In this document: positions 8,149 through 63,660 of the stretch, piece after piece
Position numbering within the stretch: position 1 is the first letter of the stretch
Layout of the letters: the number at the start of each line of letters is the position of its first letter
From: Acinetobacter phage nACB2
DNA: 64,000 nt
Sequence record: OQ032512.1
Strand: one strand, 5' to 3'
Made by a program: the position numbers and the translations under genes
Notes under the pieces: model-generated
What the model saw: only the letters and a program-made list of their open reading frames with translations
Database searches by the model: none
What the model was told of the DNA's origin: nothing

Positions 8149-8224
8149 AGCCTAGTAGCTCAGTTGGTAGAGCAGCGGATTGTTAATCCGTTGGTCACAG
8201 GTTCGAACCCTGTCTAGGCAGCCA
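8149..8224 (+). tRNA. tRNA-Asn (anticodon GTT) with an encoded CCA.
   Basis: D-arm GCTC-AGTTGGTA-GAGC, anticodon loop TTGTTAA, T-arm ACAGG-TTCGAAC-CCTGT, then CCA. The 1:72 pair reads as A-A, so the 5' end may be off by 1 nt. Confidence 0.75.
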
Positions 8225-8226
8225 TT

Positions 8227-8303
8227 GGGACTTTAGCTCAGAAGGTCAGAGCATCCGACTCATAATCGGGCGGTCACTGGTTCGAAACCAGTAAGTCCCA
8301 CCA
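8227..8303 (+). tRNA. tRNA-Met (anticodon CAT; could also be an Ile-lysidine type) with an encoded CCA.
   Basis: Acceptor GGGACTT/AAGTCCC, anticodon loop CTCATAA, T-arm ACTGG-TTCGAAA-CCAGT, discriminator A, then CCA. Confidence 0.85.
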
Positions 8304-10307: not shown

Positions 10308-10627
10308 TGACTATGGCTTCTGTCTCACTTCCTTTCTCAACTTTATCGGAAACGGTTGGACAAGTTGGGATGAACTTTATCTATAACCATATGGATAATT
10401 TTCGGGATATTACATTCAACGCTTACGGTAAACACTACCCAGAACGCATGACATCGAAAATGGACGTCTATCCGGAAATGTTTAGAGCGCTGAAGGTTTT
10501 GTCTCATAACAAAGACCTGTACAAAGCTCTTATGGATATGGAGGATGCTTCTATAGTGAACGTCACGCTAGAGTCCAATGAATTTAGTGCATTTATCTTT
10601 TTCAAGGCTGAAAATAAAAATGGCTAA
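10301..10627 (+). CDS. Hypothetical protein (about 108 aa; start moved to the ATG at 10301/10307).
   Basis: The ORF-track start at 10271 lies inside the small Zn-ribbon ORF. ATG 10307 overlaps that ORF's stop. Confidence 0.5.
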   Translation: MVMTMASVSLPFSTLSETVGQVGMNFIYNHMDNFRDITFNAYGKHYPERMTSKMDVYPEMFRALKVLSHNKDLYKALMDMEDASIVNVTLESNEFSAFIFFKAENKNG

Positions 10628-10931
10628 ACGCAATCATAAACCTTGTGGATATAATCACATTCAAGTGCGCCGTTTGGGTAAGCAATGGTACGTTTGTATC
10701 TATTGGAATTACAATTGGTATCAACCTAAATGTACTGGATGCATCAGTTGCCAAACTGAGCTAGGGAAATCTAGAGGTTGGCAATGTAACCCCAACAAGA
10801 TTGTCAAGGGTAAAACGCTTGACATCTTATCAGTCTGTAAAAATCGATCTGATGCCAACCGCGCAGCTGATGAATTAGTGAGACGCGAGGAAGAGGATAT
10901 GCATTGGTATGGAGTATTTGATAATGAATAA
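10620..10931 (+). CDS. Cys-rich protein (about 103 aa; start uncertain, 10578 or 10620).
   Basis: Seven or more Cys residues (CGY..CIY..CTGCISC..C..C), a probable Zn-binding module. Confidence 0.4.
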   Translation: MAKRNHKPCGYNHIQVRRLGKQWYVCIYWNYNWYQPKCTGCISCQTELGKSRGWQCNPNKIVKGKTLDILSVCKNRSDANRAADELVRREEEDMHWYGVFDNE

Positions 10932-11283
10932 ACATTTGGTATTGATTGCGGCGCTTTTATTCCCAGCCTGCTCAAAGATGGATTCTGTGAACAAGGTTGT
11001 TACAGAAATAAAGGTAGCTGATGTTGAGGTGATGGACATTAACCGACCTCCTCAATTTTCTTTACAGATACGATCCACTGACAGATCAATTAGTGATTAT
11101 CTCGTATCAACTGAAGAGTGTCCCAACTGGAGAAATGTTGAATACGGAACTATCTACAAGATGGAATATACTGTAACAACAAAGTACTACAAGTCAGGAA
11201 AGACATCTAAAACAATCGCGCTTCCTAATTCTTGCACATTTGCGAACTACGCTGTGGTCAAATATAGATTGGATGTAAAATGA
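10924..11283 (+). CDS. Putative lipoprotein (about 119 aa).
   Basis: The ATG at 10924 is preceded by GGAG. N-terminal signal MNKHLVLIAALLFPAC with a Cys after the hydrophobic stretch (non-canonical lipobox FPAC). Confidence 0.5.
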   Translation: MNKHLVLIAALLFPACSKMDSVNKVVTEIKVADVEVMDINRPPQFSLQIRSTDRSISDYLVSTEECPNWRNVEYGTIYKMEYTVTTKYYKSGKTSKTIALPNSCTFANYAVVKYRLDVK

Positions 11284-15268: not shown

Positions 15269-16051
15269 TTAAGCCAAATAGAACAGGTCGCAAGCTTCAT
15301 TTCTCAAGCGTTCCATGATATCAGCTTCGTCTTGACGCCCTTGTTCCAACATAGCTTGACCTTGAATAACTTGTCCTCCAGGAAGTTGCATACCTTCATA
15401 CTTGGACATAGTTTGACCAATGATTTGTTTACACAATGCGGTTGCTAAGTCTTGCATTGTCTCATTGTCGAAAATGAGACCACCGCCAATCGTACTCGTG
15501 GGTACGGAAGTCATTCCAGTATGTTCCTCTTCAGGAATATAGTCTTCAAGTGCTCTAATACAGATCAGATCATTTTCTTTAACAGGAAACTTCAGAGTGA
15601 TCTGATGATTAAACTTTGTGAATACAAATGGAAAAATATCCATGCCTGTAACAATCTTATATGTATCTACCCGAGCCATTGCCGCAAAGTAATCAACCAT
15701 AGACAGAGGTGTCATAAACACGCCGTTTAAGAATACGTTGCGCGTCAATGTAAATTCTGTAGTTGCAAAATACAAAGGATCTGTATTGCTATTTCCAACT
15801 GGAATAATATCTGTCACTGCATCAAAAGAATCTGGTACTTGGAACCACCCTTGTTCTAGAATTTCCTTTGTGATCTTCACTACACAGAATGATTCAAATG
15901 AAAAGTTATTGTGCCAGCGCCACATTTTCTTGATAGCGCCGTCAATGGCTCCGTTAAGCTGTTCGTCACTTATGTTTACCTTAACAATAGGATACCCTAA
16001 ACTGTTTAAGATACGCGCCTTCACATCTTTGCGTGTTCTATTTCTGTACAT
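15269..16051 (-). CDS. gp13: Neck protein gp13-like.
   Basis: Start moved to the ATG at 16051 (SD GGAGA). N-terminal region 'RKDVKARILNSLGYPIVKVNISDEQLNGAIDGAI' parallels T4 gp13 '[30 protein letters not shown]'. Confidence 0.65.
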   Translation of the reverse strand: MYRNRTRKDVKARILNSLGYPIVKVNISDEQLNGAIDGAIKKMWRWHNNFSFESFCVVKITKEILEQGWFQVPDSFDAVTDIIPVGNSNTDPLYFATTEFTLTRNVFLNGVFMTPLSMVDYFAAMARVDTYKIVTGMDIFPFVFTKFNHQITLKFPVKENDLICIRALEDYIPEEEHTGMTSVPTSTIGGGLIFDNETMQDLATALCKQIIGQTMSKYEGMQLPGGQVIQGQAMLEQGRQDEADIMERLRNEACDLFYLA

Positions 16052-16238
16052 GTCCCAGAATCTCCTGTAACAACAATTCTTGTCTATCCAAACGTTCATT
16101 TAGTGTTTTAACATTAGTCTGGAGTTCCTGAATTTGGTCGTCCTTCTGTTTTGCTAATTCTCTTTGTTTGGTATACTGTAAAAAGCCAGCTGTGTCAGTA
16201 TTTGACACAGCTGCTCCATTTCTAACCCATTTATTCAT
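16038..16238 (-). CDS. 66-aa coiled-coil protein in the position of fibritin (wac); possibly a mini whisker/fibritin-like protein.
   Basis: Heptad-like 'LAKQKDDQIQELQTNVKTLNERLDRQELLLQEILG'. ATG at 16238 with SD AGGTAGA. Confidence 0.4.
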   Translation of the reverse strand: MNKWVRNGAAVSNTDTAGFLQYTKQRELAKQKDDQIQELQTNVKTLNERLDRQELLLQEILGHVQK

Positions 16239-26918: not shown

Positions 26919-27284
26919 ATGAACGTCATTGATAACCGTATTAAGATTACAACTCGGATGGGTGCAGATATAAATGAAACAATATCTGGAACTGACCCTG
27001 TCTCTAAGTTGAGTTATCGTTTTGATGAATATGAAGATATTCAACTACATCTTTCGCTTTCCAAAATAGGGCAGCCGTATTATTCTAAGCCTTTGGATTA
27101 CGACGCAGCTTTACCCAGAACATTAATCATTCAATTAACAGAATCTGAACTATTGAATGAACATCCTGTCGAAACAATGGGTTTTGTAAACCCACCACCT
27201 TTCTTTCACTTTTATATCAATGCAAAGAAAGGTGGTAATAGAGTGGTATTGTTTAATGGTGTTATTGAACGCCCTCAATATTAA
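26919..27284 (+). CDS. Hypothetical protein (121 aa) encoded on the opposite strand inside the late structural operon.
   Basis: A plus-strand ORF with an AGAGGA SD. It diverges from the 821-aa gene and converges on gp25-like; the two stop codons overlap by 4 nt. Confidence 0.45.
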   Translation: MNVIDNRIKITTRMGADINETISGTDPVSKLSYRFDEYEDIQLHLSLSKIGQPYYSKPLDYDAALPRTLIIQLTESELLNEHPVETMGFVNPPPFFHFYINAKKGGNRVVLFNGVIERPQY

Positions 27285-27652
27285 GATGTGCGTACAATCT
27301 TAATAGAATCTTCAGACATCTCCAGCTCATTTTCGTACAGATACTTGATCTTGATAATGAGATGGTGATGTTTTGAACCGTCAAAATCTATTGCTTTAAT
27401 GACAATTCTTGGTTCATCAATTCTAGCAATCTCCTCAATCTTAGATGTTATCTGCGCTCTCAACAAAGCATTATCATTATCGAACAAAGTCTGATAGATA
27501 TTTCCGCCGTGGATATCGCTGCGCATAATAAAATCTTCAATCCCAGATAATACTAGGGTCTTGAATGCTTGAAATACAGCCTTTTTACCGCGCAACAGGT
27601 TCAAATCTCTAGTCTGCGGGTGTATGAGAAAATTGGGGTCGAAATCAGCCAT
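27281..27652 (-). CDS. gp25: Baseplate wedge protein gp25-like (GPW/gp25 family).
   Basis: Start moved to the ATG at 27652 (SD GGAGA); the TTG at 27685 is an ORF-caller artefact. 'FDPNFLIHPQ...VFQAFKTLVLSGIEDFIMRSDIHGGNIYQTLFDNDNALLRAQITSKIEEIARIDEPRI' aligns with T4 gp25 'FDPEFGCDLSDQLFENMTPLTADTVERNIESAVRNYEPRI'. Confidence 0.7.
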   Translation of the reverse strand: MADFDPNFLIHPQTRDLNLLRGKKAVFQAFKTLVLSGIEDFIMRSDIHGGNIYQTLFDNDNALLRAQITSKIEEIARIDEPRIVIKAIDFDGSKHHHLIIKIKYLYENELEMSEDSIKIVRTS

Positions 27653-49239: not shown

Positions 49240-51873
49240 TTATCCTTGGCAGTTTTCGCAGTCTTCATCTTTCTCTTCAGAGAAAAGATTATCAGCTTGA
49301 GCGAGATGTTCTTTGTAAAGGGCTTGTACTTCTTTATGACCGCCAATCCAAGCACCATCTAAGAACACTTGAGGTACAGAACGGCAAGAAGGGTCGCCTG
49401 TTACTTCAGCGGCAGTTTTTTCAATCTGTTGTAGATCAACAAATTTGAATTCTACGCCCATATCACTTAACCAACGCTTAACTGTAGTACAATTAGGGCA
49501 GACTTTTGTACCGTAAACAATATTCTCACCAGACTTCTGTTCTTTCTTAACAGAATCTTTCAGAGCTTTACGCTCTAGAGCTTGAGACAATGTTTCAATC
49601 TCAACTTCAGGCTTCGTACGGTAGTAATACAGAGATTTTAAACCCCATTTCCAAGCGTAGAAGTGACATGCGACTACATAGTTGATATCACTTCCTGGTT
49701 TGAAGAACAAGTTTAAACTTTGAGCCTGACAGATTTCAGGTTGACGGTCGGCGGCAAGACGAACAATGCTCAATTGAGGAATCTCAAAAGCTGTAGCAAA
49801 TACGCGCTTTTTATGATCGCTCATGAATTCTAGATGAGATACTGAACCTTCATTATGAGCAATGCTTGTCCATACTTCTTCAGTATCTTGACCTAGTTCT
49901 TGAAGATACTTCTTCAAATAAGGGTTGCGGCGTTCAAAGATACCAACACGCGTTTCTTTAGTGTAGATGTTAGCGTATTCAGGTTCACAGCTGGCTGATG
50001 TAGTTAGCATATCAGCATTGTTAGAGTTAGGCGCGATAGCAAGTAAATGCATGTTACGACGACCAACGTGCGGATGATCTTTAGAACTAGCCGCATCTGG
50101 ACATTCACCGCGCTCTTCACCTAATTTAAGTGTTTCGGCTACAGCTTCTGTTTTGATGCGTTTGAATAATGCTTTGTTGAAAACACGCGCTTCTTCAGAA
50201 TCAAATGGCATATCTTGCTTCTGGAAAGCGTAATGAAGACCCATAACGCCTAGACCAATAGAACGTTCTTGAGTTGCTGAATTGATCACTTTGTACAAAG
50301 CCATTTTAATCAATTCACGGTGACGTGGATTATCATAGCGGTTCGCAATCCAGTCTGCAGTGCGAATGAAATGTTCAATGGCATTGTCCAATGCACGCAC
50401 TAAGTCGCCTACTAAGGTAGGTGCCCATTGATCATGATATTCAGCATTTAATGAAGACAAGCAGCACACTGGAGTACGGTCATCATTCGCTGGAAGAGTA
50501 ATTTCAGTACAGTTAGAAACAAGCGCAACTCGATGATCGAAATCATTTTTACCGCCCACGCTTACATAGAAGTTATGGTTGTCTTCTACAGTTAAACAGT
50601 AAACATCTTGTGTTCCAACATTTTGCTCAACGGAAGCAACTGTAAGATCAGAATTGTCAAAATTTACAGAGCCGTGACGGAACAGACGAGAATCAATTTG
50701 CTTACCAACAGAATCTTTTGCTTTTACGCGTTTTCCGATGGTTGTGAATAGTTCATGATCTTTCGTACAAGTGATAGTTTCACCTGAACGGAAAGTCAGG
50801 GTAACCATTTCTTTACGTCCAGTCAATTTAGCAGTAGCCGTTTTGACCTCAGGGTAGACTTTACCGTTTGAAACTCGTCCTGTCCATACTTTGAATGGAA
50901 TAGAACCAGACGATTCACGCGCCAACTGTTTAATAGAGATAGGCTTACGACCGTCTGCTACAATTACTTTTGTATCACCTGCAAGACACAAGTTTGAAGC
51001 GTATGAATACAATCCGAGACGTTTCTGAGCTTCAGGCAGTGCGCGGTTTGCATTACCACGGAAATACATGAACGGTTCGCCTGTGCGACCGCGTTCGACA
51101 ATCATAGAACGGAAGTAATCTGTAGGATTTACAGTGTCCACAACGCGTTTTGAATGCGGATCAATCAGGTGATATTCTTCAGCGCCGTCTTCAATGCGTT
51201 CCATGAGATCATCTTCAATAGAGAATCCAATATGGATGTTTTCAGCTTTGCGGTTCGCGTCACCTGTAGGAGTACGAATCTTCAAAAATTCTTTAGCGGA
51301 AGCGTGATTAGCAGATAACCAACAAGCTTCAGCGCCACGGCGTACTTTGCCTTGTTTCCACGCTAGAATTGCTGCGTCATCTTCAATAATGAACGGAATT
51401 GGGCCAGGAGATTTTTCAGATGTATAGCGGATATCAAAGTATTTGCCGATACCGCCGCCAATTACAGACAGTAAAGACGATTCTAATTTACCCATCAATA
51501 AAGAAGGGATATTATCAGACACCATAGGAAGGAAACAAGAAATATTCTGAGAACCATTATGGTTGAAATCTTCTTCATGTTCCCAAATAGGTAATGATTG
51601 GTTAATCATACCAGCTTTCCACACTTCAGGCTTCAGTTCCGGAGCATTAGACAGCATAGGCGAAGACCACATGAAATGCAGCATAGAGTTGGCATCATAA
51701 AGGCGCTGAGCGTGATGAACGTCATCAGACCAAGCTACGCATGCACGAGCTAGTGTTTCTTGGATTGTTTCCCCACTACGTGTATAAAAGTTTTTGATAA
51801 GGTCTTTCGCAGGTTCTGTAAGCAAATTATCTCGAGAATCATCAATATTGATTCCCATGTAAACACGTGTCAT
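49240..51873 (-). CDS. nrdA: Ribonucleotide reductase large subunit (NrdA) with no ATP cone. It contains a 159-aa mini-intein at the catalytic Cys and a C-terminal glutaredoxin-like domain.
   Basis: Extein '...YSYASNL|CTEITLPANDDRTPVCCLSSLNAEYH' matches E. coli NrdA 'SNLCLEIALP...IALCTLSAFNL'. C-terminal Grx fold 'CPNC...SVPQVFLDG' followed by a 'CENC' tail. Start moved to the ATG at 51873 (SD GGTGGA); the ORF-track GTG at 51882 is an artefact. Confidence 0.85.
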   Translation of the reverse strand: MTRVYMGINIDDSRDNLLTEPAKDLIKNFYTRSGETIQETLARACVAWSDDVHHAQRLYDANSMLHFMWSSPMLSNAPELKPEVWKAGMINQSLPIWEHEEDFNHNGSQNISCFLPMVSDNIPSLLMGKLESSLLSVIGGGIGKYFDIRYTSEKSPGPIPFIIEDDAAILAWKQGKVRRGAEACWLSANHASAKEFLKIRTPTGDANRKAENIHIGFSIEDDLMERIEDGAEEYHLIDPHSKRVVDTVNPTDYFRSMIVERGRTGEPFMYFRGNANRALPEAQKRLGLYSYASNLCLAGDTKVIVADGRKPISIKQLARESSGSIPFKVWTGRVSNGKVYPEVKTATAKLTGRKEMVTLTFRSGETITCTKDHELFTTIGKRVKAKDSVGKQIDSRLFRHGSVNFDNSDLTVASVEQNVGTQDVYCLTVEDNHNFYVSVGGKNDFDHRVALVSNCTEITLPANDDRTPVCCLSSLNAEYHDQWAPTLVGDLVRALDNAIEHFIRTADWIANRYDNPRHRELIKMALYKVINSATQERSIGLGVMGLHYAFQKQDMPFDSEEARVFNKALFKRIKTEAVAETLKLGEERGECPDAASSKDHPHVGRRNMHLLAIAPNSNNADMLTTSASCEPEYANIYTKETRVGIFERRNPYLKKYLQELGQDTEEVWTSIAHNEGSVSHLEFMSDHKKRVFATAFEIPQLSIVRLAADRQPEICQAQSLNLFFKPGSDINYVVACHFYAWKWGLKSLYYYRTKPEVEIETLSQALERKALKDSVKKEQKSGENIVYGTKVCPNCTTVKRWLSDMGVEFKFVDLQQIEKTAAEVTGDPSCRSVPQVFLDGAWIGGHKEVQALYKEHLAQADNLFSEEKDEDCENCQG
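50512..50988 (-). mobile_element. Mini-intein (159 aa, no obvious homing-endonuclease domain) inserted immediately before the thiyl-radical Cys of NrdA.
   Basis: Block A 'CLAGDTKVIVADGR', block B 'GETITCTKDHELFT', block F 'DVYCLTVEDNHNFYV', C-terminal 'VALVSN' followed by +1 Cys. The flanking exteins rejoin to the canonical 'SNLCTEI'. Confidence 0.75.
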
Positions 51874-51990
51874 ATATTCCACCGTAAATTTATAAAACTG
51901 TCTAATAGCGTTCTATCCAGACACCCAAAGCCTATCATAACCCTATTTATTAGAAAGCTGACTTTATCAAATATTTTTGGAGAATTTTAA

Positions 51991-52914: not shown

Positions 52915-52945
52915 AAAAGGACTCGTGAGAGTCCTTTCTATTTCA
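52915..52945. terminator. Bidirectional terminator (aaggactc-gtga-gagtcctt + T-run).
   Basis: Read directly, between convergent genes. Confidence 0.7.
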
Positions 52946-53275
52946 AGCTCCGTAAATCATATGATGAGCAGAATCGTATATTGTTTTATACTGCGGTTGA
53001 ATATAACTACAGTATTTCTGAATAAGCTGTTCAACTTGATCTTCAGTTCTAGGTGAATTTGAATTTATAAAATCAACGAGCGGACGTATCATACGAGTGA
53101 GTTGAAGAGCCATACTAGAGCGTTCATTTATGCGATAATCTAGATGAACACTCAAATTACCATCATACGCTTTTCTTATGGCAAAAATCGTACCGCGTAC
53201 CAATTTTTTATCTGAAGAATTGTTGATGCTCTCAATAGGATTCATCATATCTGTGTTAGGCGCGTAGACCTTCAT
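52943..53275 (-). CDS. Hypothetical protein (110 aa).
   Basis: ORF downstream of the spanin genes. Confidence 0.45.
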   Translation of the reverse strand: MKVYAPNTDMMNPIESINNSSDKKLVRGTIFAIRKAYDGNLSVHLDYRINERSSMALQLTRMIRPLVDFINSNSPRTEDQVEQLIQKYCSYIQPQYKTIYDSAHHMIYGA

Positions 53276-53344
53276 ATCTGCATCTCAGGTATTATAGTTC
53301 AGACCGAATTATAAACTAGAATAATTCAGTCTGGTAAAATCAAA

Positions 53345-53878
53345 TCACTTTGATTCTTGCTCTGCCTTGAACCTGTTGTATTCATCTATTGTTGCTTTAC
53401 ATTGCTCATATTGCTTGAAGGCTTCTGCTGTAGCTCTGTCAGCCTGTTCTGATGATTCGACAGCATGTTGTTTAATTTCACTGTAGAGGTCAATGTAGGT
53501 TGTGGCAACTTTGGTTGCGTAGGCTGTGTCAGCACTGGATACAACGTTGGTTCTAATTTCTTGGGATTGGGTTGACAACCCACTAACGAGCTTGCGAGTG
53601 CTATTAATATTGTTGTTAATAGCATTGAGAGTTTCAGCATAATCATTCTCCAGAGTAGTATGCTTTTCTATTAAGCGTTCAGTCAAATTATTAACTTCAG
53701 TCTGACGCTCTATAATTTTGTCTTTGTCTTCACCTTCTTGCTCAAGAACCGCGATTTTATAGTTCTTGAAGTCATTATTTGTATTGACCCAACAAACGGC
53801 AAAAACAATTGCTAAGACAGAAGCAATTACAAAATGCAATTGTTTCAATAATAATTCTTTGAATAATACCCAAGTCAT
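53345..53878 (-). CDS. i-spanin (Rz-like), about 177 aa.
   Basis: Start at the ATG 53878 with SD GGAGG 5 nt upstream. N-terminal TM helix 'LHFVIASVLAIVFAVCWV' followed by a long coiled coil. Immediately downstream of the endolysin. Confidence 0.65.
   Translation of the reverse strand: MTWVLFKELLLKQLHFVIASVLAIVFAVCWVNTNNDFKNYKIAVLEQEGEDKDKIIERQTEVNNLTERLIEKHTTLENDYAETLNAINNNINSTRKLVSGLSTQSQEIRTNVVSSADTAYATKVATTYIDLYSEIKQHAVESSEQADRATAEAFKQYEQCKATIDEYNRFKAEQESK
53386..53646 (-). CDS. o-spanin (Rz1-like) lipoprotein embedded in another frame inside the i-spanin gene.
   Basis: Signal peptide with lipobox 'LIALASSLVGC', followed by a Pro-rich mature region (QPNPKKLEPTLYPVLTQPTQPKLPQPTLT). It lies entirely inside 53345-53878. 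Confidence 0.6.
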   Translation of the reverse strand: MIMLKLSMLLTTILIALASSLVGCQPNPKKLEPTLYPVLTQPTQPKLPQPTLTSTVKLNNMLSNHQNRLTELQQKPSSNMSNVKQQ

Positions 53879-53915
53879 TTCGACCTCCATAATAAAGGGG
53901 CTTGCGCCCCTTTAT

Positions 53916-54521
53916 TTATTTTGGATACTTGTTCCAAGGAAGTTGCCAGTGTGGCCCATCTTTAAAGGACTTCCAATCTCCGCCCCATTCAATACTCACT
54001 TTCAATTCTTTAGCAGCCTGTTTAACTGCTTCTTCAATCTGATAGTAGTATTTCCAATCCCATGAAACAGTACCGTTAACATAGGCGTGTAGATCAACAG
54101 CGTGACCAGTCAAATGACGGCTATTCATAGTCTGAGTTGCACCCTGTTTCATTAACTCTTTTTGGCGCGCTAGAGTTCTGAGTCCTTCACCTACCTTAAA
54201 TTGTACTGGAGTAAGCTGAATAGCTCGTTCCACTACTTTAACCAAATCAGGATGAATACCTTTCAAACGCTCCACGCAGCGTTCCGTTAATTGGTACATA
54301 TCGCTAGGTTGCAAACCCAATTGGATACCTAAATGACCTGCGGTAGTAACACCCACAATGCCGTCAGATATCAAGCCGTTGTCTTTCTGATAAGCCTTAA
54401 CAGCATTCTCAGTTCCTGAACCAAAGACGCCATCAATCAAACCGTTGTAATATCCCAATTGTTTGAGAGCAGTTTGAATCTCTTCGATGATTAAGGCTTT
54501 TGAGCCTTTGCTATATTGCAT
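53916..54521 (-). CDS. Endolysin: N-terminal peptidoglycan-binding domain plus C-terminal M15 (VanY-like) L-Ala-D-Glu peptidase.
   Basis: PG_binding_1-like 'LKQLGYYNGLIDGVFGSGTENAVKAYQKDNGLISDGIVG'. M15 motifs 'SRHLTGHAVDL', 'EWGGDW', 'DGPHWQ'. Promoter-like TATAAT and SD GGAG upstream. Confidence 0.75.
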   Translation of the reverse strand: MQYSKGSKALIIEEIQTALKQLGYYNGLIDGVFGSGTENAVKAYQKDNGLISDGIVGVTTAGHLGIQLGLQPSDMYQLTERCVERLKGIHPDLVKVVERAIQLTPVQFKVGEGLRTLARQKELMKQGATQTMNSRHLTGHAVDLHAYVNGTVSWDWKYYYQIEEAVKQAAKELKVSIEWGGDWKSFKDGPHWQLPWNKYPK

Positions 54522-54616
54522 TATTAGTCTCCATTATAATCTGAAACTTTATTTTGTATGTTCTATGTAGCTTTTCTTTTGCTATACATACTTTGATGCG
54601 AATATTAGGTGTAATT

Positions 54617-54648
54617 AAAACCTACGCATATTGCTATGCGTAGGTTTT
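54617..54648. terminator. Terminator hairpin (aaaacctacgcata-ttgc-tatgcgtaggtttt) after tail-fibre gene 1.
   Basis: Perfect 14-bp stem flanked by A/T runs. Confidence 0.75.
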
Positions 54649-54666
54649 AATAAACTGAGCGGATAC

Positions 54667-57600
54667 TTAAATCACCTCTACTCTATTTATATACAGAGTA
54701 GCTGTTTGACCAGCAATAGTTTCTGCCGAACCTGAAATTTCAGTGAACATAATCTGAAGTGTATTTGCGCTTGTTACACTTGCCGTGAAATAACCACGGG
54801 TTTTTAAAGTTGAGCTTGGTACTACCTCAACTAAATCACCAACGGTTAAACCCGAAATATCCGTAATTGGAGTGAATAAGAAATTTCCATTTGCTACAGG
54901 TGGGAATGATGAAAAAGTCCTAGTTGTTCGAGCTATTTTGTTGTTGATAAAATATTCAAACACTGGATCTGTTGCCGTCCAACCTGTTAATACCCAATAA
55001 CCCAGACCATCGTCTGTAGCGAACTTAGTACCAACAGCAAACACATCTTTATTGGCAAGTTTGATAACTGGCCTCAATGCGGATGTAATATTAACAACCC
55101 TTCTGTTTCCTCCTGCCACTATATTATTCTCACCAATTCTGAATCCGAATTCTAATGTTCGGTTAGTGGTTTCGTTATATATGCCATTTACTTCAGTGAC
55201 AATGTCGTTGTCGTAAATGTCCAACAATGCCGAGCCACTAGATGTAATAGCCCCCAATATTTTAGTGTCGAAAGCTCTTAAAGCTGCATCGTTGATATCA
55301 TTACCATTAATTCTGACGTCATTAGGTGTGCGGACGGTGATAGACCCTGTCTTATTGAAAGAAATGTTACCCTTCTTACAATACGACTGTGACATATACA
55401 AAAACAAGCGATCAGCCGTATTTCCTTCTATCTTGAAATTCTCCAAACCCACTGTAATGTATAGCGAGCCGCCGATTGTATTACCGATCATTTCCAGTCC
55501 GATCTGAGGAGTAACTGCGTCATCCACTTTAGGTAGAATACTGAAACCACTAACGCTTGCTGTACTCACGCCCGCAATAAAATTCGGGTTGGCTATGGTA
55601 TTATTATTGATTTTTGCGCGCGGACAGAATCGAATAAAACCAGGGTAATCTAAATTGTTATTCAACAATTTTAAATCATACCCACCGACAATTTGTAATG
55701 TCGAACCTCTGGAATTTTTAGTAATTCCGTTTTTAATAGTAGCGTTATATGAACCAAAATATCCTCGGAATCCGGCATAGAATCCATCCAAGGTATCGCC
55801 ATCACTCGTACAATCTCGACATTTAGCGCCAAAATATACACCTGCGCCATCTGTCACCTCTGATCCATTGAGCTTGAACGGGTGGAATTTAAGATTATTC
55901 TTATATGAAAGAATGTTAACTGGCCCAGCGTAGAATACTATAGCTCCGTCGCTAGTATATTGAGCATCAATGTTTGCAAAAGAGATAGAACCATTAACTG
56001 TACCGTGGTTGAAGTGCATACAAACGGCTTTACCGATGTATGGAGCAATTTGATGACAGTTAAAGGAAGACTGGTGAATAACTTTCACAGTATTAAAGGT
56101 TTGTGATGGTGCTACGCCTTTAAGACCGCCGTTTGGGTTGGTGTAACTGACATTTGTGGTAAAGAAATTACAAACATAATTATATGATAGACCAGTGTTT
56201 GTCAACCCATCATGTTCAATTGTTAAGTCTTTAAAGTGATAACGATCAGTGTACACCTTTTGCAAATAGCCCCTATTGGATGTTTTGTACAAGAGTTTAT
56301 TTTGCAATGTGACTGTTTTGTTCACAGTATCTACAGACGCAATAATATTCATTTGACCAGTGTAACCAACATCTTCTTCATCATATTGACTAGCAGTATA
56401 ATAAGCATCAGCGCCTAGAACGGTATCGGCGCCAATATACAGATGAATGATATCTCCAGCAGAAAAGCCTGCTGTGTCTGTCACGCTTATGACTTTAGTG
56501 TCTTTTTCCGATAACGCTGTCAGTCTTGTTCGAAGCATTGGGCGAGGTGTTAGACCCACACTACTTCCACTGACTTTAAGTTTAGAGCCATTACCCTCAA
56601 CAACGCAACCAGTTGGTAGTGTGATTAGTGTGTTACCCAGTTCATACTCTTTGTTTGGACTCAACTCCACTTTAGTTGGGTTTGTATAAACTAAACGCTG
56701 AAATGAGGCTGCGTCGTTTACATCTATTGGTAATCTGTAATAGTCAGGATTGAATTTTGAAACTAAATGAGACACCCATCCCGTCGTATCGATATTCGGA
56801 TTCGCTGTATTATTTGCAATGGTTGATTTTACAATGTCGCCATTCGTCAATATTACCTCAGCGTTCAACCCATAACTCATTCCGGTAATGAATTTTCCGA
56901 CACCGTATGGAATCCAACCGTCAACATTTGAGTTTGGATTGTTCTTGTTATTTGCTACAGCAGATTTAACCTGAGTAACGCCATCATCCAGAGTCAGTAC
57001 TGCTCCAAATGGATAACCACCAGCGTCAATGTACTCCTGTTCAAACCCATGCACTTGAACGACTTCAGACATCATTATAGCTTTGTTCACTTCATCTCTT
57101 GTCAGAGAAATGCGTTCTACAGTCTGTTCTATCTCTTCAGCGCTTAAAGTTTCCGCCTTTGTGTATACATCTGACGCATTAGCTTTCGAGTCATATAAAT
57201 CAGTAACAACTGTTTCTAGACCAGGAATCTTGTCGTAGTTAGGTAATTGTTCCCGAACAACTTTACCATCTTCACCGAGATCTGCTTTAGTGCGTTGAAT
57301 TTCATCAGTGCGTTCAATCATATCTCTTCGAGCTTGGTCCAAAACGCCATTTAGTGCTTCGCTCAAACCTTCATACTGTTCAACAGATGGTAACTGAATT
57401 TGAGGCACTTTACCGTCTACAAGATCAGCCTTAGCAATTAATTTTTCGTTCACATATGCTTCAGAATAATCTTTTGCAGACTGGATACCGTCTGTAATAG
57501 ATTCTTCCAAGGTGACCAGTTTTTGGTTGATAGTCTGGAAATTATTAGCAATAAAGTCAGGAAGATTAGATTCTTGGATCTTACCTTCTACAAGATCAGC

Positions 57601-57711
57601 CTTTTTGCTTAGACCAGCAGTTAGTTGCTCTTTTGTCACTAGAAACGACACGATCTCGCCCTCTAGAGCAAGATCGGTCACTAAGCATTCAATTTTTAGA
57701 GATTGAGTCAT
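54667..57711 (-). CDS. Tail fibre/receptor-binding protein 1 (1014 aa): N-terminal 'KADLV-GK' anchor repeats plus a C-terminal beta-helix (depolymerase-like) domain.
   Basis: N-terminus 'LKIECLVTDL...SKKADLVEGKIQESNLPDF' shared with the two downstream fibre genes. Repeated 'KADLVDGKVPQIQLP' motifs. The C-terminal half is rich in N/G/T/S beta-strand repeats. Confidence 0.7.
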   Translation of the reverse strand: MTQSLKIECLVTDLALEGEIVSFLVTKEQLTAGLSKKADLVEGKIQESNLPDFIANNFQTINQKLVTLEESITDGIQSAKDYSEAYVNEKLIAKADLVDGKVPQIQLPSVEQYEGLSEALNGVLDQARRDMIERTDEIQRTKADLGEDGKVVREQLPNYDKIPGLETVVTDLYDSKANASDVYTKAETLSAEEIEQTVERISLTRDEVNKAIMMSEVVQVHGFEQEYIDAGGYPFGAVLTLDDGVTQVKSAVANNKNNPNSNVDGWIPYGVGKFITGMSYGLNAEVILTNGDIVKSTIANNTANPNIDTTGWVSHLVSKFNPDYYRLPIDVNDAASFQRLVYTNPTKVELSPNKEYELGNTLITLPTGCVVEGNGSKLKVSGSSVGLTPRPMLRTRLTALSEKDTKVISVTDTAGFSAGDIIHLYIGADTVLGADAYYTASQYDEEDVGYTGQMNIIASVDTVNKTVTLQNKLLYKTSNRGYLQKVYTDRYHFKDLTIEHDGLTNTGLSYNYVCNFFTTNVSYTNPNGGLKGVAPSQTFNTVKVIHQSSFNCHQIAPYIGKAVCMHFNHGTVNGSISFANIDAQYTSDGAIVFYAGPVNILSYKNNLKFHPFKLNGSEVTDGAGVYFGAKCRDCTSDGDTLDGFYAGFRGYFGSYNATIKNGITKNSRGSTLQIVGGYDLKLLNNNLDYPGFIRFCPRAKINNNTIANPNFIAGVSTASVSGFSILPKVDDAVTPQIGLEMIGNTIGGSLYITVGLENFKIEGNTADRLFLYMSQSYCKKGNISFNKTGSITVRTPNDVRINGNDINDAALRAFDTKILGAITSSGSALLDIYDNDIVTEVNGIYNETTNRTLEFGFRIGENNIVAGGNRRVVNITSALRPVIKLANKDVFAVGTKFATDDGLGYWVLTGWTATDPVFEYFINNKIARTTRTFSSFPPVANGNFLFTPITDISGLTVGDLVEVVPSSTLKTRGYFTASVTSANTLQIMFTEISGSAETIAGQTATLYINRVEVI

Positions 57712-57739
57712 GTCAGTTCAACATTCATTAGATTGAGTA

Positions 57740-57753
57740 TTGAACTATTTATG
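57740..57753 (-). promoter_or_regulatory. Late-promoter-like motif. The minus strand reads cATAAATAGTTCAA, about 30 nt upstream of the fibre-1 ATG.
   Basis: The same 13-14-nt motif recurs upstream of fibre 2 (60598-60612) and, in a variant ATAAAATAGTTCAA, upstream of fibre 3 (63769-63784). Confidence 0.4.
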
Positions 57754-57902
57754 AGATTGTTTATAACTATACGAAATGGAAACTAGTCATTCTAGAAGTA
57801 AGCAACCATACTAAGACAATTAAAATTAATGCTATATGCTACTCTAAATTTTTAAAATCTTCAATGACTTCGCTCTATACCAATACGTATAAGTTTTGTA
57901 GA

Positions 57903-57925
57903 TAAAAGAAACCTCCCGAAGGCGG
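57903..57925 (-). terminator. Terminator after fibre gene 2 (ccgcc-UUCG-ggagg with a G-A mismatch, then a T-run on the minus strand).
   Basis: Read directly; moderate quality. Confidence 0.45.
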
Positions 57926-57931
57926 TTGTAA

Positions 57932-60571
57932 TTATACATTGCTTGTTCTTGAAACAATGCTCCACTTCGAGCCAGCAACTCTTAGGGTTACAATTTCATC
58001 AGGTGCAATAGTCACTTCGCTGTTCATGTTTGTACCAGATAAAATAACAGATGGTCGACCAGCAGGGTTACTAATTTGTAGATGATCACTAACTGTTTGT
58101 GGTTTAGGTAAATTGATAGTGATGCTTGAGCTGCCAACAGCATGGCCTAGTCGAATCCACGACATCCGTTCTTGAAGTTCGTTTATAGTAATAGTCTTAC
58201 CATCTACTATGGTTAAGCCAAGTGCTGCTACTTTAGACCCAGCTCCGATGCTACCCTGTATTGCATTGGTTGCATTACAGTCTAACTGAGCAACACCAGT
58301 ACCGCCATAACTAATGTTTTCTACATTGTGATATGCACCTAAAGGAACATCAGAGCCTACAACTGTCATTACGCCAATCTTTCCAGACTTTGGCGATCCT
58401 GTAATTGTAACGTTATCAACAGTCATAAAGTAATGACCTTGCGCCAAGTAGATTTGACTACAATCCCCAACACTAATGTCTTTTAGAGTTACCTTTGAAC
58501 CGTCATTCACAAAACCTGAACGTGTACCACCTGTACTCGCAAACACTCGACCTATCTTATTTGCCTTTAGGTTTGATAACACCAAGCCTTTATTGACTAC
58601 ACCATTGATTCGGACTAATGATGAGCCAGATGTGGAAGTCATAGCGCTTGGGTGCAGCACATCAACATCAATATTATCAACTGAGCAACCGACTACAGAG
58701 TTCCGGAAATATACACCGTACACACCTGTATTTGTAGACGGATCAACATCCGCTCTGATTCTAGCAACAACATTTTTTACATGAACACTTCGGAATGGGT
58801 GGTTTTGTTTTAAAGCAGGTACAGTACCACCATAACCTTGCTCGCTTAGAACCACAGGATATTGTGATGTCGTGACTTGAATGTTTTCACATAAAATGTA
58901 ACCTGCAAATCCATTGTGTGCCAATCCAACTGGAGCAGACTTATCATCATCATCGCTAATATCTCGGATAATACCAAAATATGCACTATCCTGATCATAT
59001 ACGTGTCGCATCCCCGAACCCTTAACACTATTCACGGTGAATTTAGAAACACCGAACAACTGAATGCCATAACCTTGACCACTACCGACAGCAGCCGCTT
59101 TAAGGGGTCTCGTATCATTAGCAATAACATCATATGAGTAGCGGATGTGCACGGCAGAGCCTGTTGTTCCAACGGATTCAATATTATTGGTTCTGACGTT
59201 TTCGCAGTTTGCAATTATTGATGTGTGTGCTGTATGGGTTGGTGTTGGTTTAAATACAGCGTTCTTTAATTCCACGCGTTTTAGTTGATCGGGGGAATGA
59301 TAAAAACGAATCGTCGAAGCACCTTTATACGCCGCCATAAAGTTTTCAACAGTAATTACATTTCCGGAAATAGCTTTAATCTTGACTGTTTCATAGTTCA
59401 CGTTGCCAGTGGTTGAGCGCGTAGCCCCATCCCATAGATAACCAATATCACCTACCTTAAATAAAGAGGAAGCATTAGGCACTGTGAACTGTGTATCACC
59501 ATGATTAAGCACAGCTTCGGTGACAGTGTACTCTGTTGCGGATAGCGAGCCGATCTGAACAATAGGCTTGTCGTTTACTGTATTTATTAAAGTACAGCCA
59601 TTAAAATCAATGTTTAATGATTTGTTTTCACTAATAAAATGACCTGATAGCGTCTTACCATATGGGAACACAATTTTTGCATTATTGGGCGCTTCACTAA
59701 TCAATTGATTGTACTTAGCAGTATTATCATCGCTTTCAGATAATTTATACCTCTCAACATAAATAACAGAATCAGCTTTAGCCTTATTATCGCCTGCTTG
59801 GGATGTATTAATCTCTTGCTGAGTCTTCCCGCTTTCATCAATAACATCAGATGCATCAACGGTCATTTTAAACGGTTGCCAAACGTTACCAACAAACTGT
59901 TGGATTACGCCATCTTTTAAAGTCAATGCCCCGTCAACATATTCCAAATCAGGATCGTATGGAAGAGAAGCTCCATTCTTGATAATATGATCTTGAGTAT
60001 TTTTCACTACCCCAATTTCATTACCAAAATAATTCAACTGGCTATTGACTTCGCCTTTATACTCATTGATAGTATTGTTCAAAAATTCTCTTTCTTCAAG
60101 AACTTTACCATCTGTATAAGAATTAGCTGAACCAACAAGACCATCCATTTGAGCTACTATGCTTTCAGAATTTTGTCTCAATTCTTGACGCACATTTTCA
60201 AATTCAGTTGAAACATTCTGTTCGAAGTTCATGGAAAATGGTAGTTGTTCGAATGGGACTTTACCTTCAACAAGATCAGCTTTCTTAGAATTGTTCTCTG
60301 ATATCTTGTTGTCTGAGTATAATTTCGCTGCGTTTAAGATTTCCGCGTCAGATTCCAAATAAGACTGTTCTACGTCATCTAATTTGTCGACTAGACCATC
60401 CAAGTAGGTATAATCTGGTAATAGACTTGGGTCTACTTTTCCTTCGGCATTCAGAGTGGCTTTTTTAGATAATTCATTTGCAACATAATCTGTAGTTGCA
60501 AATTCAGAAACAACTACTCCGTTCTGACCTAGATCAGCAACGGAGATTTCAAGTTTTAACGTTTTAGACAT
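57932..60571 (-). CDS. Tail fibre/receptor-binding protein 2 (about 879 aa): shared N-terminal anchor plus a beta-helix C-terminal domain.
   Basis: Start moved to the ATG at 60571 (the ORF-track TTG at 60595 is an artefact). N-terminus 'MSKTLKLEISVADLGQNGVVVSEF...SKKATLNAEGKVDPSLLPDY' is homologous to fibres 1 and 3. Confidence 0.7.
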   Translation of the reverse strand: MSKTLKLEISVADLGQNGVVVSEFATTDYVANELSKKATLNAEGKVDPSLLPDYTYLDGLVDKLDDVEQSYLESDAEILNAAKLYSDNKISENNSKKADLVEGKVPFEQLPFSMNFEQNVSTEFENVRQELRQNSESIVAQMDGLVGSANSYTDGKVLEEREFLNNTINEYKGEVNSQLNYFGNEIGVVKNTQDHIIKNGASLPYDPDLEYVDGALTLKDGVIQQFVGNVWQPFKMTVDASDVIDESGKTQQEINTSQAGDNKAKADSVIYVERYKLSESDDNTAKYNQLISEAPNNAKIVFPYGKTLSGHFISENKSLNIDFNGCTLINTVNDKPIVQIGSLSATEYTVTEAVLNHGDTQFTVPNASSLFKVGDIGYLWDGATRSTTGNVNYETVKIKAISGNVITVENFMAAYKGASTIRFYHSPDQLKRVELKNAVFKPTPTHTAHTSIIANCENVRTNNIESVGTTGSAVHIRYSYDVIANDTRPLKAAAVGSGQGYGIQLFGVSKFTVNSVKGSGMRHVYDQDSAYFGIIRDISDDDDKSAPVGLAHNGFAGYILCENIQVTTSQYPVVLSEQGYGGTVPALKQNHPFRSVHVKNVVARIRADVDPSTNTGVYGVYFRNSVVGCSVDNIDVDVLHPSAMTSTSGSSLVRINGVVNKGLVLSNLKANKIGRVFASTGGTRSGFVNDGSKVTLKDISVGDCSQIYLAQGHYFMTVDNVTITGSPKSGKIGVMTVVGSDVPLGAYHNVENISYGGTGVAQLDCNATNAIQGSIGAGSKVAALGLTIVDGKTITINELQERMSWIRLGHAVGSSSITINLPKPQTVSDHLQISNPAGRPSVILSGTNMNSEVTIAPDEIVTLRVAGSKWSIVSRTSNV

Positions 60572-60636
60572 GACGGTAGCCCATAGATAGAACAATATTT
60601 GAACTATTTATGTGACTACTGTTTGATTTTATAACA

Positions 60637-63600
60637 TTAACCGAAATTTAGAATCTTTTGAGCAACGTATTTTCCAAATACTTCATTTCCTAATGGAGTT
60701 AAATGTACACCGTCATGAGAATATTTCATTTGTACCTCATTGACAATCATCGGTCTCATGTCTTTGTAGCCGAACCCGCATTCATACGTTCCCAATATTA
60801 GATGAACACCGTAATATTCACAAACTGATTTCAAGAACGGGATCAATTGTGTGATTCGAGTTGGCGCATCGCTGTTAGGAGCTGGTCTATTTCTGTAGGG
60901 TGGAGCTATAATATGTATCTCACATTTAGGGGCTTTCCAACGAATGTATTCTATAATAAGTGCGATGTTACATAAATAGTTGTTTGGAAATAATGCGGCG
61001 TACTCATTCGCTGTTGCATAATCTTGGAAACGCCCTGCTGGAATCTGGTCAATAGAACCAGATACAACGCCGTCCGAGTCATTCGTTCCAATCATTAAAG
61101 TGAAACAAGCCAAGTTTGAAGGATCTTTAGCAGACCAAGCAGTTGGGGTATCTCTCTGGGCTATTCCGGAACCTGCAGTAATAATATCAACAACTCGACT
61201 TACGCGTGCTCCAGACGAACCATGATTGGTTATTCGAGTACCGAAAGCTTTCGATAAATATTGAGTGTACGTTCCATTAGTTGGTACATCTGAACCCTGC
61301 GTAATAGAATCTCCTGCACACCAAACTTCTAAATTTTGGAATCGACTGATTACAGTCGGATTTTGTGGTTTCGCAAGTGAGAAGCCCATTATGCTTGAAA
61401 CATACGGAGTTGTGGTTTTTGCTACAAAATCTTCAAAAATTGAAACGGTAGATACGACATCATAAGATTGGGACGGTAATTTGGTTGTATAGAAAGCCTT
61501 TGTAAATGCTATATCCGAGTCTGTTGTTGTGAATTGGTACACATCTGGCTCACCAGTAGGTATTAAATCCCGCTTAGTTATGGCAAGTCCGTTGTAAGGA
61601 TTTCCAGAACCAATTAAACCAACGTATCTGTTACCGTCAGACATAAATTGAGGCGCTTTAATGTAATATGTTGTATTTGGTTTTATCTTTATTTCAACTA
61701 AAACAGCATTGGTCGCAGCCGTAATAGCAGTTAATCCGACGTATAGACCAGAAGTCTTAACCGAGTTTTTATATAAGTCAAGATAATCTGTTACGACAGC
61801 AGAAGCTTTCAAAGCCTTTTCATCTCGTATCGGAATACCTTTCACCCCAGTGACCGTATTTGTAACGATAGACTTTATCATCAACGATTCAGATATATTT
61901 AAACTTGCTCCCCACTTCACGTTCAAAAATCCAAAACCAGTGATTGGAGCAACAAATGTGAATACATTTGGATCTACAGTCGCTGTCAAATTTTGTAGTG
62001 TATTCACTTTCCCGATTGCGGTTGTATTATCAACATGAACAGCTAATTTAGCGTATGTTGTATTAAACCCAGACGGAGCTGTTAGAGTATATTTTTCACC
62101 AGCAACAATTGGAAATACATTCAATAAACAATCAGAAACTGATCGTATTGTTCCGTTCGCTGGATCAATATTCAAATTTCCATAGTTATTAGCTGATGAA
62201 TATAAATTTACAGAATTGTCTATGTTAAGAACTGTTTCGATATTTGAAGCTTTCAAAGCCGATTTATCTTCAATTGGAATGTCTTTAATGCTTGTAACTC
62301 TATCGTTAACATTTGATTTAATTTTTAATGTAGTTGATATATCTAGAGGGACACCCCACTTCACGTTCAAAAATCCAAAACCAGTGATTGGAGCAACAAA
62401 TGTGAATACATTTGGATCAGATGTTGAAGTAAGATTATGTAATGTATTGACCTTTCCGAGCGTTGTTGTATTATCAACATGAACAGCTAATTTAGCGTAT
62501 GTTGTATTAAACCCAGACGGAGCTGATAGAGTATATGTTTCGCCAGCAACAATTGGAAATACATTAATTACTGCGCTTGAAACTGATCGTATTGTTCCGT
62601 TCGCTGGATCAATATTCAAATTTCCGTAGTTATTAGCTGTTGAATATAAATCTACATTGTTTTCTGTTTTAGCGAGACTGTCGGAATAACTCTTAGCTTG
62701 CGTAAGAGGGTCATAAAGACTCTTTGATAAAACAGTCCCATTCCATTGGTATGTTCCATTGTTAACCCCGTCATTGGTGACATCAACAACCGTGTTTGCT
62801 GGTAAAGATGCTTGAGCAGCCTGTGCAAGAGCGAGTGTAGTGTAAGCCTTTCTCCCTCCCACATAGGCTGAAAATGTGGCATCGACTTCAGTTCTGCTAT
62901 ATGTGGCAGTTTTCAAATACACTTCTGTCTTGTTGGGTTTAGCTCCTAACTTGGAATCGACTTCGTTGGCTGAGTATGAATCCGATTTTGTTCTTAGTGT
63001 ACTAGCCAAATTTTCAACATAAGTTTTATCAGCTTTTGATAATTCCACATCTTTACTTGCGAAACGGTTTGCTGAATCAATCTGAAAATGGTTGAATTCA
63101 GTTTCCAAATCAGATTGTAGTTCAGAAAAACTTGTTTGTAGACTATTTTGTAGTTCAGAAAAACTAGCAGCGTAAACTACATCTGATGGTAGAACTGTCT
63201 TGGAAACCTTTCCGGCATTGAGTTTAGGGTATTGAGATAAACTGGATTGGACTGCTTCGATTTCACTTTGAAAAGATTGTTTCAAACCATCTATTGCGCC
63301 CTTTGCGCCTTGAATATCTTTGAACAAAGGTGCTTGAGTAGATGGTACGCGCCCTGCGACCAAATCAGCCTTGACACCTAAAACATTCTGAACAACGCCG
63401 TCTGCATATTCTTTCGCTTCGAATAAAGCTGTATTAGTTTCAGAGCGTAATTGGGTTGCTAGACCATTTATCTCTTCAGTTACACCATTTAATTCAGAAA
63501 ATGATGGTAATTGGGTTGGATTTACCTTTCCATTCACCAAATCAGCCTTTTTGGCCATATCTGTATTATGTAAATCTTGTGTCACAAAGTCTGATAGGAC

Positions 63601-63660
63601 TGCGCCACTTTCACCTACGTCTGCTAATACGACGTCAATTTTCAGTTTGTTATCACTCAT
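60637..63660 (-). CDS. Tail fibre/receptor-binding protein 3 (1007 aa): shared N-terminal anchor, two tandem 148-aa repeat domains, and a C-terminal SGNH/GDSL esterase domain.
   Basis: N-terminus 'LKIDVVLADVGESGAVLSDF...KKADLVNGKVNPTQLPSF'. C-terminal SGNH blocks 'CAGDSITQG' (I), 'MIGTNDS' (III) and 'DGVHLT' (V). SD GGAG. Confidence 0.75.
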   Translation of the reverse strand: MSDNKLKIDVVLADVGESGAVLSDFVTQDLHNTDMAKKADLVNGKVNPTQLPSFSELNGVTEEINGLATQLRSETNTALFEAKEYADGVVQNVLGVKADLVAGRVPSTQAPLFKDIQGAKGAIDGLKQSFQSEIEAVQSSLSQYPKLNAGKVSKTVLPSDVVYAASFSELQNSLQTSFSELQSDLETEFNHFQIDSANRFASKDVELSKADKTYVENLASTLRTKSDSYSANEVDSKLGAKPNKTEVYLKTATYSRTEVDATFSAYVGGRKAYTTLALAQAAQASLPANTVVDVTNDGVNNGTYQWNGTVLSKSLYDPLTQAKSYSDSLAKTENNVDLYSTANNYGNLNIDPANGTIRSVSSAVINVFPIVAGETYTLSAPSGFNTTYAKLAVHVDNTTTLGKVNTLHNLTSTSDPNVFTFVAPITGFGFLNVKWGVPLDISTTLKIKSNVNDRVTSIKDIPIEDKSALKASNIETVLNIDNSVNLYSSANNYGNLNIDPANGTIRSVSDCLLNVFPIVAGEKYTLTAPSGFNTTYAKLAVHVDNTTAIGKVNTLQNLTATVDPNVFTFVAPITGFGFLNVKWGASLNISESLMIKSIVTNTVTGVKGIPIRDEKALKASAVVTDYLDLYKNSVKTSGLYVGLTAITAATNAVLVEIKIKPNTTYYIKAPQFMSDGNRYVGLIGSGNPYNGLAITKRDLIPTGEPDVYQFTTTDSDIAFTKAFYTTKLPSQSYDVVSTVSIFEDFVAKTTTPYVSSIMGFSLAKPQNPTVISRFQNLEVWCAGDSITQGSDVPTNGTYTQYLSKAFGTRITNHGSSGARVSRVVDIITAGSGIAQRDTPTAWSAKDPSNLACFTLMIGTNDSDGVVSGSIDQIPAGRFQDYATANEYAALFPNNYLCNIALIIEYIRWKAPKCEIHIIAPPYRNRPAPNSDAPTRITQLIPFLKSVCEYYGVHLILGTYECGFGYKDMRPMIVNEVQMKYSHDGVHLTPLGNEVFGKYVAQKILNFG
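61777..62664 (-). repeat. 444-bp tandem duplication (two units, about 80% aa identity) inside fibre gene 3.
   Basis: The 68-nt string 'ccccacttcacgttcaaaaatccaaaaccagtgattggagcaacaaatgtgaatacatttggatc' occurs at 61911 and at 62355, an offset of 444 nt. Protein residues 333-480 match 481-628. Confidence 0.8.

Follow-up and report, generated by a model that had tools for sequence, protein, structure and literature searches.

In phage lambda, the o-spanin gene Rz1 lies wholly inside the i-spanin gene Rz in the +1 frame, within a lysis cassette adjoining the endolysin gene, and this embedded class accounts for 182 among the 528 spanins with two components catalogued by Kongari et al. (2018, PMC6139136). 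About 70% of the catalogued embedded spanins run from 0.4-0.5 L to 0.9-1 L of the i-spanin gene, and 507 of the 528 two-component systems have a periplasmic cysteine for intermolecular disulfides (PMC6139136). For Acinetobacter phages, Kongari et al. list spanins in the T4-like phages 133, Acj9 and Ac42 (PMC6139136), and a survey of Acinetobacter phages reported that spanins could not be identified and proposed a spanin-independent outer-membrane route (PMC8878043). Here we analysed a 64,000-nucleotide window of Acinetobacter phage nACB2 (host A. halotolerans, genome of 136,560 bp, OQ032512; PMC10057805), which by its gene-table coordinates makes up the final 64 kb of the genome, the first 72,560 nucleotides (nt) lying outside the window. 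On its minus strand, at 53345-54521, we describe an endolysin gene followed by two nested genes, a cassette which, from its sequence, very probably represents late lysis genes with an embedded-class two-component spanin. The gp names used below are those of the published nACB2 gene table, in which the coordinate of every gene compared equals its window coordinate plus 72,560; the genes compared include those of the terminase, a 1602-aa structural protein, the ribonucleotide reductase and the baseplate hub, gp161-gp163 and three tailspike genes. Features placed by coordinates at or beyond position 27281 are on the minus strand.

The cassette consists of three open reading frames (ORFs) of 201 amino acids (aa; 53916-54521), 181 aa (53345-53890) and 86 aa (53386-53646). 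The initial annotation of this stretch had placed all three exactly, while the likely start codons of both spanin genes lie a few codons further downstream than the ORF starts that it used. The leading gene, gp163 (53916-54521, 201 aa), encodes an endolysin with an N-terminal PG_binding_1 domain (4.4e-18) and a Peptidase_M15_4 domain (2.1e-12) in a Pfam search, and it matches the endolysin family PHROG 465 at 5.8e-64; the PG-binding and M15 peptidase endolysin that had been placed upstream of the spanin ORFs is thus borne out. Read from the sequence, a GGAG ribosome-binding site (54529-54532) lies 7 nt upstream of the endolysin ATG. The hydropathy maximum of gp163 is 1.11 (19-aa window), and since the protein has no hydrophobic N-terminus and no signal or signal-anchor-release segment, it is predicted to be soluble and should need a holin.

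The i-spanin gene, gp162, starts 38 nt past the endolysin stop codon. We compared it with nine related metagenomic loci, six of which came from a word-indexed protein database, two from an exhaustive profile search and one from IMG/VR, and the same linkage to the endolysin gene is present in L002-L006 and L009. The most likely translation start is ATG 53878, corresponding to M5 of the 181-aa ORF, and the product then has 177 aa (53345-53878). This choice is made because the upstream ATG is not conserved, a GGAGG ribosome-binding site (53884-53888) is placed 5 nt upstream of ATG 53878, and the i-spanin homologs begin at the M5-equivalent position in their loci. Across an alignment with five related loci, GGAG does not vary, while three of these loci have ATA or ACG in place of the ATG at 53888-53890; the six database homologs are 175-180 aa long and align over 98% of the 181-aa query.

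The i-spanin is predicted to have a short N-terminal cytoplasmic tail, one membrane helix and a periplasmic domain that is possibly helical. Its sole transmembrane segment by hydropathy occupies codons 14-31 (LHFVIASVLAIVFAVCWV, 53786-53839), the Kyte-Doolittle 19-aa maximum of 2.25 falls on residues 13-31 (QLHFVIASVLAIVFAVCWV), and all other windows stay at or below 1.6. With K7 and K12 on the N-terminal side of the hydrophobic segment, the hydropathy profile is that of a type II protein with a single helix. The N-terminal transmembrane helix that the initial annotation had assigned to the outer ORF, and on which it had made its reading depend, is therefore present as a single hydrophobic segment. 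Among seven i-spanin sequences 76 columns are invariant, including C160; this cysteine is also kept in P0008, and in P0007 a cysteine stands at another position. A periplasmic cysteine is thus present in all i-spanins of the family, in line with the need for disulfides set out by Kongari et al. (PMC6139136). An AlphaFold2 model built from the seven-sequence alignment places helices at residues 2-47, 52-114 and 118-176, and was taken as a hint to secondary structure only, being too poor for a fold search (mean predicted local distance difference test score, pLDDT, 48.9; predicted template modelling score 0.29).

The o-spanin gene (53386-53640, 84 aa) is nested in the +1 frame with its full length within the i-spanin gene, spanning 0.45 L to 0.92 L, which falls in the commonest range of the catalogue (PMC6139136). 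The ORF starts of the outer and embedded frames are 244 nt apart (81x3+1). The o-spanin start is most likely ATG 53640, M3 of the 86-aa ORF, because a GGAG ribosome-binding site (53648-53651, inside the i-spanin coding sequence) lies 7 nt upstream of it and the earlier ATG has been lost in relatives. More precisely, the upstream ATG is gone in three of them, the two most divergent groups begin at the ATG 53640 column, and the ribosome-binding site CTGGAGAA is retained in 8 of the 10 loci.

The product begins with a predicted lipoprotein signal peptide, MLKLSMLLTTILIALASSLVG, followed by the acceptor Cys22 (codon 53575-53577; signal and acceptor together 53575-53640). The signal comprises K3 in the n-region, a 15-residue hydrophobic core and the lipobox LVGC ending in Cys22, after which comes Gln23 at +2; LVGC is the single match in the o-spanin to the lipobox pattern [ILMFTV][^REKD][GAS]C. 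Cys22 is invariant (10/10), and Gly21 and Gln23 are each found in at least 90% of the sequences. The +2 residue is Gln in nine of the ten and His in L009, so that none carries the Asp of Lol avoidance. The sorting rule built on Asp +2 is an E. coli rule, which may not hold for Acinetobacter. The mature o-spanin has 63 aa, with 8 prolines among its first 30 residues, and the lipidated cysteine is its only one. A conserved Leu-rich segment towards the C-terminus (L56, L60, L67 and L70, together with a conserved Pro/Leu pattern) may be helical. The signal peptide with lipobox LVGC and the proline-rich mature region had both been noticed in the initial annotation, which had also made its reading hinge on a credible signal peptidase II site; by the lipobox pattern such a site is there.

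We read these genes as an embedded two-component spanin because a type II membrane protein with a lipoprotein nested in its +1 frame, directly after an endolysin, is the defining anatomy of the class. The features by which the embedded class is recognised (PMC6139136), namely a single N-terminal transmembrane segment, a lipobox, the +2 residue, nesting, linkage to lysis genes and a periplasmic cysteine, are all found at this locus. The i-spanin also matches PHROG 312, 'Rz-like spanin', at E=1e-7 (33.1 bits), residues 15-157 aligning to positions 9-157 of a profile of 173. The Rz/Rz1-type architecture proposed at the outset is in this way supported by the anatomy, by the conservation of both frames and by the PHROG 312 match.

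What the sequences directly support is how the genes are laid out, which membrane signals they encode, and that both overlapping frames are under purifying selection. The +1 frame is free of stop codons for 93 codons. In seven long genes of the window, runs in alternative frames are 10.6 codons long on average, with only 1 of 1238 extending to 86. The length of the open frame is by itself suggestive, not decisive. When the six frames of the 64-kb window are all filtered for lipoprotein signals, two ORFs only pass, the embedded o-spanin ORF being one of them. All nine relatives have a +1-frame ORF of 82-84 codons in the same place with a signal peptide, their lipoboxes reading LVGC, LTGC, LIGC, LAAC or ISGC, and the frame is also open in the two loci with the most divergent i-spanins. 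The coordinates and the nine relatives thus agree with the earlier statement that the o-spanin ORF is fully embedded in a different frame of the i-spanin ORF. The ten o-spanin sequences align without internal gaps and are 38-91% identical to that of the window, the two most distant loci giving 38% and 41%; in loci whose i-spanin shares 51-53% identity with that of the window, the figure for the o-spanin is 52-55%. Concomitantly, the variability of the third codon position of the i-spanin gene is 0.74 upstream of the overlap, 0.47 inside it and 0.92 downstream, and the drop within the overlap is significant (Fisher p=7e-4 versus upstream and 8e-5 versus downstream). Low third-position variability confined to an overlap is the expected sign of a second reading frame under selection. 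As far as sequence comparison can tell, this evidence is decisive for the embedded frame being real, with purifying selection acting on both frames.

Compared with lambda Rz/Rz1, the nACB2 pair shares not only the nested +1 arrangement next to the endolysin gene but also a type II i-spanin, whose periplasmic domain may likewise be largely helical, a small Pro-rich o-spanin lipoprotein and an i-spanin cysteine near the C-terminus (C152 in Rz, C160 of 177 in nACB2). In contrast, no sequence relationship between the two pairs is detectable with Pfam. The mature o-spanin is longer (63 aa, versus 40 aa in Rz1; PMC6139136) and carries the conserved Leu-rich C-terminal segment, which sets it apart from Rz1, and its only cysteine is the lipidated one, whereas Rz1 has C29. 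The nACB2 endolysin is an M15 peptidase where that of lambda is a transglycosylase, and no holin gene is adjacent in nACB2. T4 PseT.3/PseT.2 differ more, since they are encoded by separate genes, the T4 i-spanin has no periplasmic cysteine and the T4 o-spanin has two (PMC6139136). The initial annotation had considered a lambda-like arrangement notable against the background of T4. This does not hold, as the phage is not of T4 type and embedded spanins are common. In the phage collection, the closest record is that of Acinetobacter phage SH-Ab 15599 (baseplate hub 53% identical), classed under Ackermannviridae, and nACB2 is Ackermannviridae-like, no relative of T4 in any narrow sense.

By analogy with lambda Rz/Rz1, the translation and lipidation of the o-spanin, the formation of a complex and the fusion of membranes would proceed as follows. 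The M15 endolysin would cross to the periplasm via a holin encoded elsewhere and cleave the peptidoglycan. The 177-aa i-spanin would be anchored in the inner membrane by its N-terminal helix, with the helical domain reaching into the periplasm, and the 84-aa o-spanin would be made from the same mRNA in the +1 frame, with translation directed by a ribosome-binding site of its own. After export, lipidation at Cys22 and cleavage by signal peptidase II, the o-spanin, with Gln at +2, would be sorted to the outer membrane. The two proteins would join by their C-terminal regions and bridge the periplasm, and upon loss of the wall this bridge would collapse, leading to fusion of the inner and outer membranes and to release of the virions.

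Several results weigh against the spanin assignment. A tblastn search of both proteins against 50,697 phage records returned no match, and neither did a megablast of positions 53000-55000 against the same records. NCBIfam gave nothing relevant for either protein. In Pfam, the i-spanin has no significant match, and the four matches below the cut-off at E<=0.1 include no spanin family; the o-spanin has none at E up to 0.1, and neither protein significantly matches the models of lambda Rz and Rz1. The o-spanin hits PHROG 11621 (0.011, residues 7-80) and PHROG 812 (0.025) weakly, both named 'Rz-like spanin', and these two together with PHROG 312 are the only library families matching the nACB2 spanins, with modest scores. 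Since tblastn, Pfam and NCBIfam gave nothing, homology to characterised spanins rests on one modest and two weak PHROG matches. The low confidence of the AlphaFold2 model (mean pLDDT below 50) makes any coiled-coil character of the i-spanin no more than putative. Besides, a hydropathy scan of all ORFs of the window identified no holin, the nearest cultured relative, SH-Ab 15599, has no recognisable spanin, and when the outer gene is resampled with synonymous codons, a +1 run of at least 93 codons arises in 4.1% of the trials.

That last figure, along with a mean longest +1 run of 54 codons in the same resampling, is what an accidental open frame would have in its favour. The embedded ORF would then be untranslated, a chance product within the gene of a membrane-anchored helical protein, and its conservation would be a by-product of selection on the outer frame. 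In keeping with this, no gene caller reported the embedded ORF, its PHROG matches are weak, and the o-spanin alignment profile found no homolog among 5.8 billion predicted proteins, hence no non-embedded homolog either. The absence from predicted proteins is expected, however, as embedded genes are passed over by gene callers. Selection on the outer frame does not readily account for a start, a signal peptide, an invariant cysteine and a gapless alignment kept in common by four lineages (the window group, L007/L008, L009 and L010), nor for an embedded protein as conserved as the outer one and for outer-frame third positions constrained only inside the overlap. The GGAG 7 nt upstream of the embedded start and the fact that just two ORFs with lipoprotein signals occur in the six frames of the window also speak against an accident, which we regard as highly improbable.

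Both proteins could instead be made and serve another role, as a pair for superinfection exclusion at the envelope or for lysis timing. Phage lipoproteins with exclusion roles exist, T5 Llp being an example. The lack of the pair in SH-Ab 15599, the closest isolate, would fit such a role, and so would the survey that reported no spanins in Acinetobacter phages (PMC8878043). On the other hand, the nesting of a lipoprotein gene within a type II membrane protein gene, in its +1 frame and right after an endolysin, is known among phage genes only from spanins (PMC6139136). The position of the nesting, the Pro-rich mature domain and the conserved periplasmic cysteine fit the spanin class, and PHROG 312 is a spanin family; we hold a different function of the pair to be very unlikely. 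A last reading would have the outer protein work with some other outer-membrane protein, such as the product of 10909-11283 (plus strand), the embedded ORF being a decaying remnant. This product is the second in the window with a lipoprotein-type signal (lipobox FPAC), but its gene lies 42 kb away on the opposite strand among small early-type genes, the protein has a mature domain of about 100 aa and only a weak match to a PHROG of unknown function, and in none of the ten loci does the embedded ORF look decayed, so that this reading is scarcely credible. The embedded two-component spanin is thus the interpretation that we retain.

The 10909-11283 gene is in itself a stand-alone lipoprotein-like gene, with MNKHLVLIAALLFPAC as its probable start and no adjacent membrane protein, and its product could be an envelope-modifying or exclusion protein. 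We also considered whether it and the gene just upstream (10578-10931) could be a further, overlapped pair of spanins, and rejected this, as that upstream gene encodes no membrane segment.

The spanin pair forms a small sequence family apart from others. When 1.84 billion cluster representatives were searched exhaustively by profile, only three related clusters and one marginal repetitive protein came up.

The comparison with SH-Ab 15599 (MH517022) is informative at the level of the locus. Both phages have the same order of tailspike genes, M15 endolysin gene, small gene, opposite-strand baseplate hub gene and ribonucleotide reductase genes, and the M15 endolysin of SH-Ab 15599 is 65% identical to nACB2 gp163. 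Unlike in nACB2, the spanin segment of about 560 bp is missing, and the small gene follows 88 nt after the endolysin gene (L001 6990-8992, record 132690-134692). A six-frame profile search of the whole SH-Ab 15599 genome found no homolog of either spanin (best E=0.33 and 0.18), and its 143 kb contain no credible lipoprotein ORF, the filter passing a single implausible antisense ORF of 43 aa. SH-Ab 15599 has either lost the cassette, and lyses without spanins, or carries an unrecognisable substitute. A spanin may thus not be strictly needed on this host type; that spanins are dispensable, and have been gained or lost within one lineage of Acinetobacter phages, is a tentative idea, rather unlikely on present evidence.

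The small gene in nACB2 is gp161 (52943-53275, 110 aa), downstream of the cassette and in the same orientation, with no membrane segment and no match in Pfam or PHROG. It bears a weak resemblance to the gene that follows the endolysin in SH-Ab 15599 (27%, E=0.001) and is missing from loci L003, L005 and L009; its presence varies among the uncultured relatives, all of which keep the spanin, and gp161 probably does not belong to the spanin system. A tandem trio of large tailspike-like genes (54667-63660) stands directly upstream of the cassette, in agreement with the three putative depolymerases described for nACB2 (PMC10057805). A GDSL/SGNH esterase domain (9.3e-14) is found at the C-terminus of the last of them (60637-63660).

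No membrane segment occurs in any gene flanking the cassette, in line with the earlier remark that no holin is nearby. The only small protein of the window with two membrane segments is gp103 (5505-5669, plus strand; 51-54 aa), which has no match to a PHROG or other family. It is the window's sole holin-like candidate, but its gene is distant from those of lysis and the protein has no charged tail at its C-terminus. The gp123 product (16038-16238), listed with '1 TMD' in the published table, was rejected as a candidate since hydropathy reveals no hydrophobic segment in it.

As regards transcription, an inverted repeat, AAAACCTACGCATA-GCAA-TATGCGTAGGTTTT, was read from the sequence at 54617-54648, 19 nt past the tailspike stop codon. 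It is probably an intrinsic terminator marking the upstream limit of the lysis unit; a consensus terminator scan did not list it. A further hairpin, with the core GGGGC-GCAA-GCCCC followed by UUUAUU, lies at 53891-53916 between the endolysin stop codon and the ribosome-binding site of the i-spanin gene. Folded with its flanks (56 nt), it has a minimum free energy of -22.2 kcal/mol (z = -4.84 versus shuffles), and its stem is conserved in five relatives, with a GCAA or UUCG loop, UUCG being found in the most distant locus. This hairpin is possibly a partial terminator or an element that stabilises the transcript, and it might also act as an attenuator or a processing site. The two GCAA-tetraloop hairpins bracket the endolysin gene. 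After gp161, the terminator scan picked out a terminator-like hairpin with a T-run (52915-52938), probably the downstream end of the transcription unit. A T4-type late promoter was dismissed: TATAAATA has one match in the 64 kb, versus 4.2 expected by chance.

Elsewhere in the window, the gene of the ribonucleotide reductase large subunit (49240-51882) seems to contain an intein and, at the C-terminus, a glutaredoxin domain, Pfam giving the order Ribonuc_red_lgC, Intein_splicing, Ribonuc_red_lgC and Glutaredoxin in near-identical reductase homologs of related loci. Three tRNA genes, for Arg-TCT, Asn-GTT and Met-CAT, are clustered at 7957-8303 on the plus strand.

The published nACB2 table describes gp162 as 'hypothetical protein' and gp163 as 'metallopeptidase', and has no gene for the embedded frame (PMC10057805). 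The only lysis gene that the paper names is gp129, as 'endolysin' (PMC10057805). We find that gp129 (27281-27652) matches baseplate-wedge PHROGs at 5.1e-13 and 4.3e-08, that a longer version of its ORF has a sub-threshold Pfam match to gp25 only, and that it adjoins tail-associated lysozyme genes; it is probably a gp25-type baseplate wedge, and hence a structural protein rather than a lysis enzyme. In the 'Motifs' column of the same table gp163 is given '1 TMD' and gp162 none, the opposite of what hydropathy shows, and the column may be shifted in places. The table also assigns one membrane segment to gp81, whose gene lies outside the window.

The nACB2 pair is a well-supported but ordinary embedded spanin, and the known spanin mechanism is unchanged by it. 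The main value of the present analysis is a corrected annotation, with gp163 as the endolysin, gp162 as the predicted i-spanin and a previously unannotated embedded o-spanin gene. It qualifies the earlier report that no spanins were identifiable in Acinetobacter phages (PMC8878043), and it adds a sequence-distinct spanin family in which both overlapping frames can be traced across o-spanin identities of 38-91%. The difference in presence between nACB2 and SH-Ab 15599 could be exploited in experiments: if SH-Ab 15599 is truly free of spanins, the two phages would form a natural matched pair for the spanin-independent route of lysis (PMC8878043).

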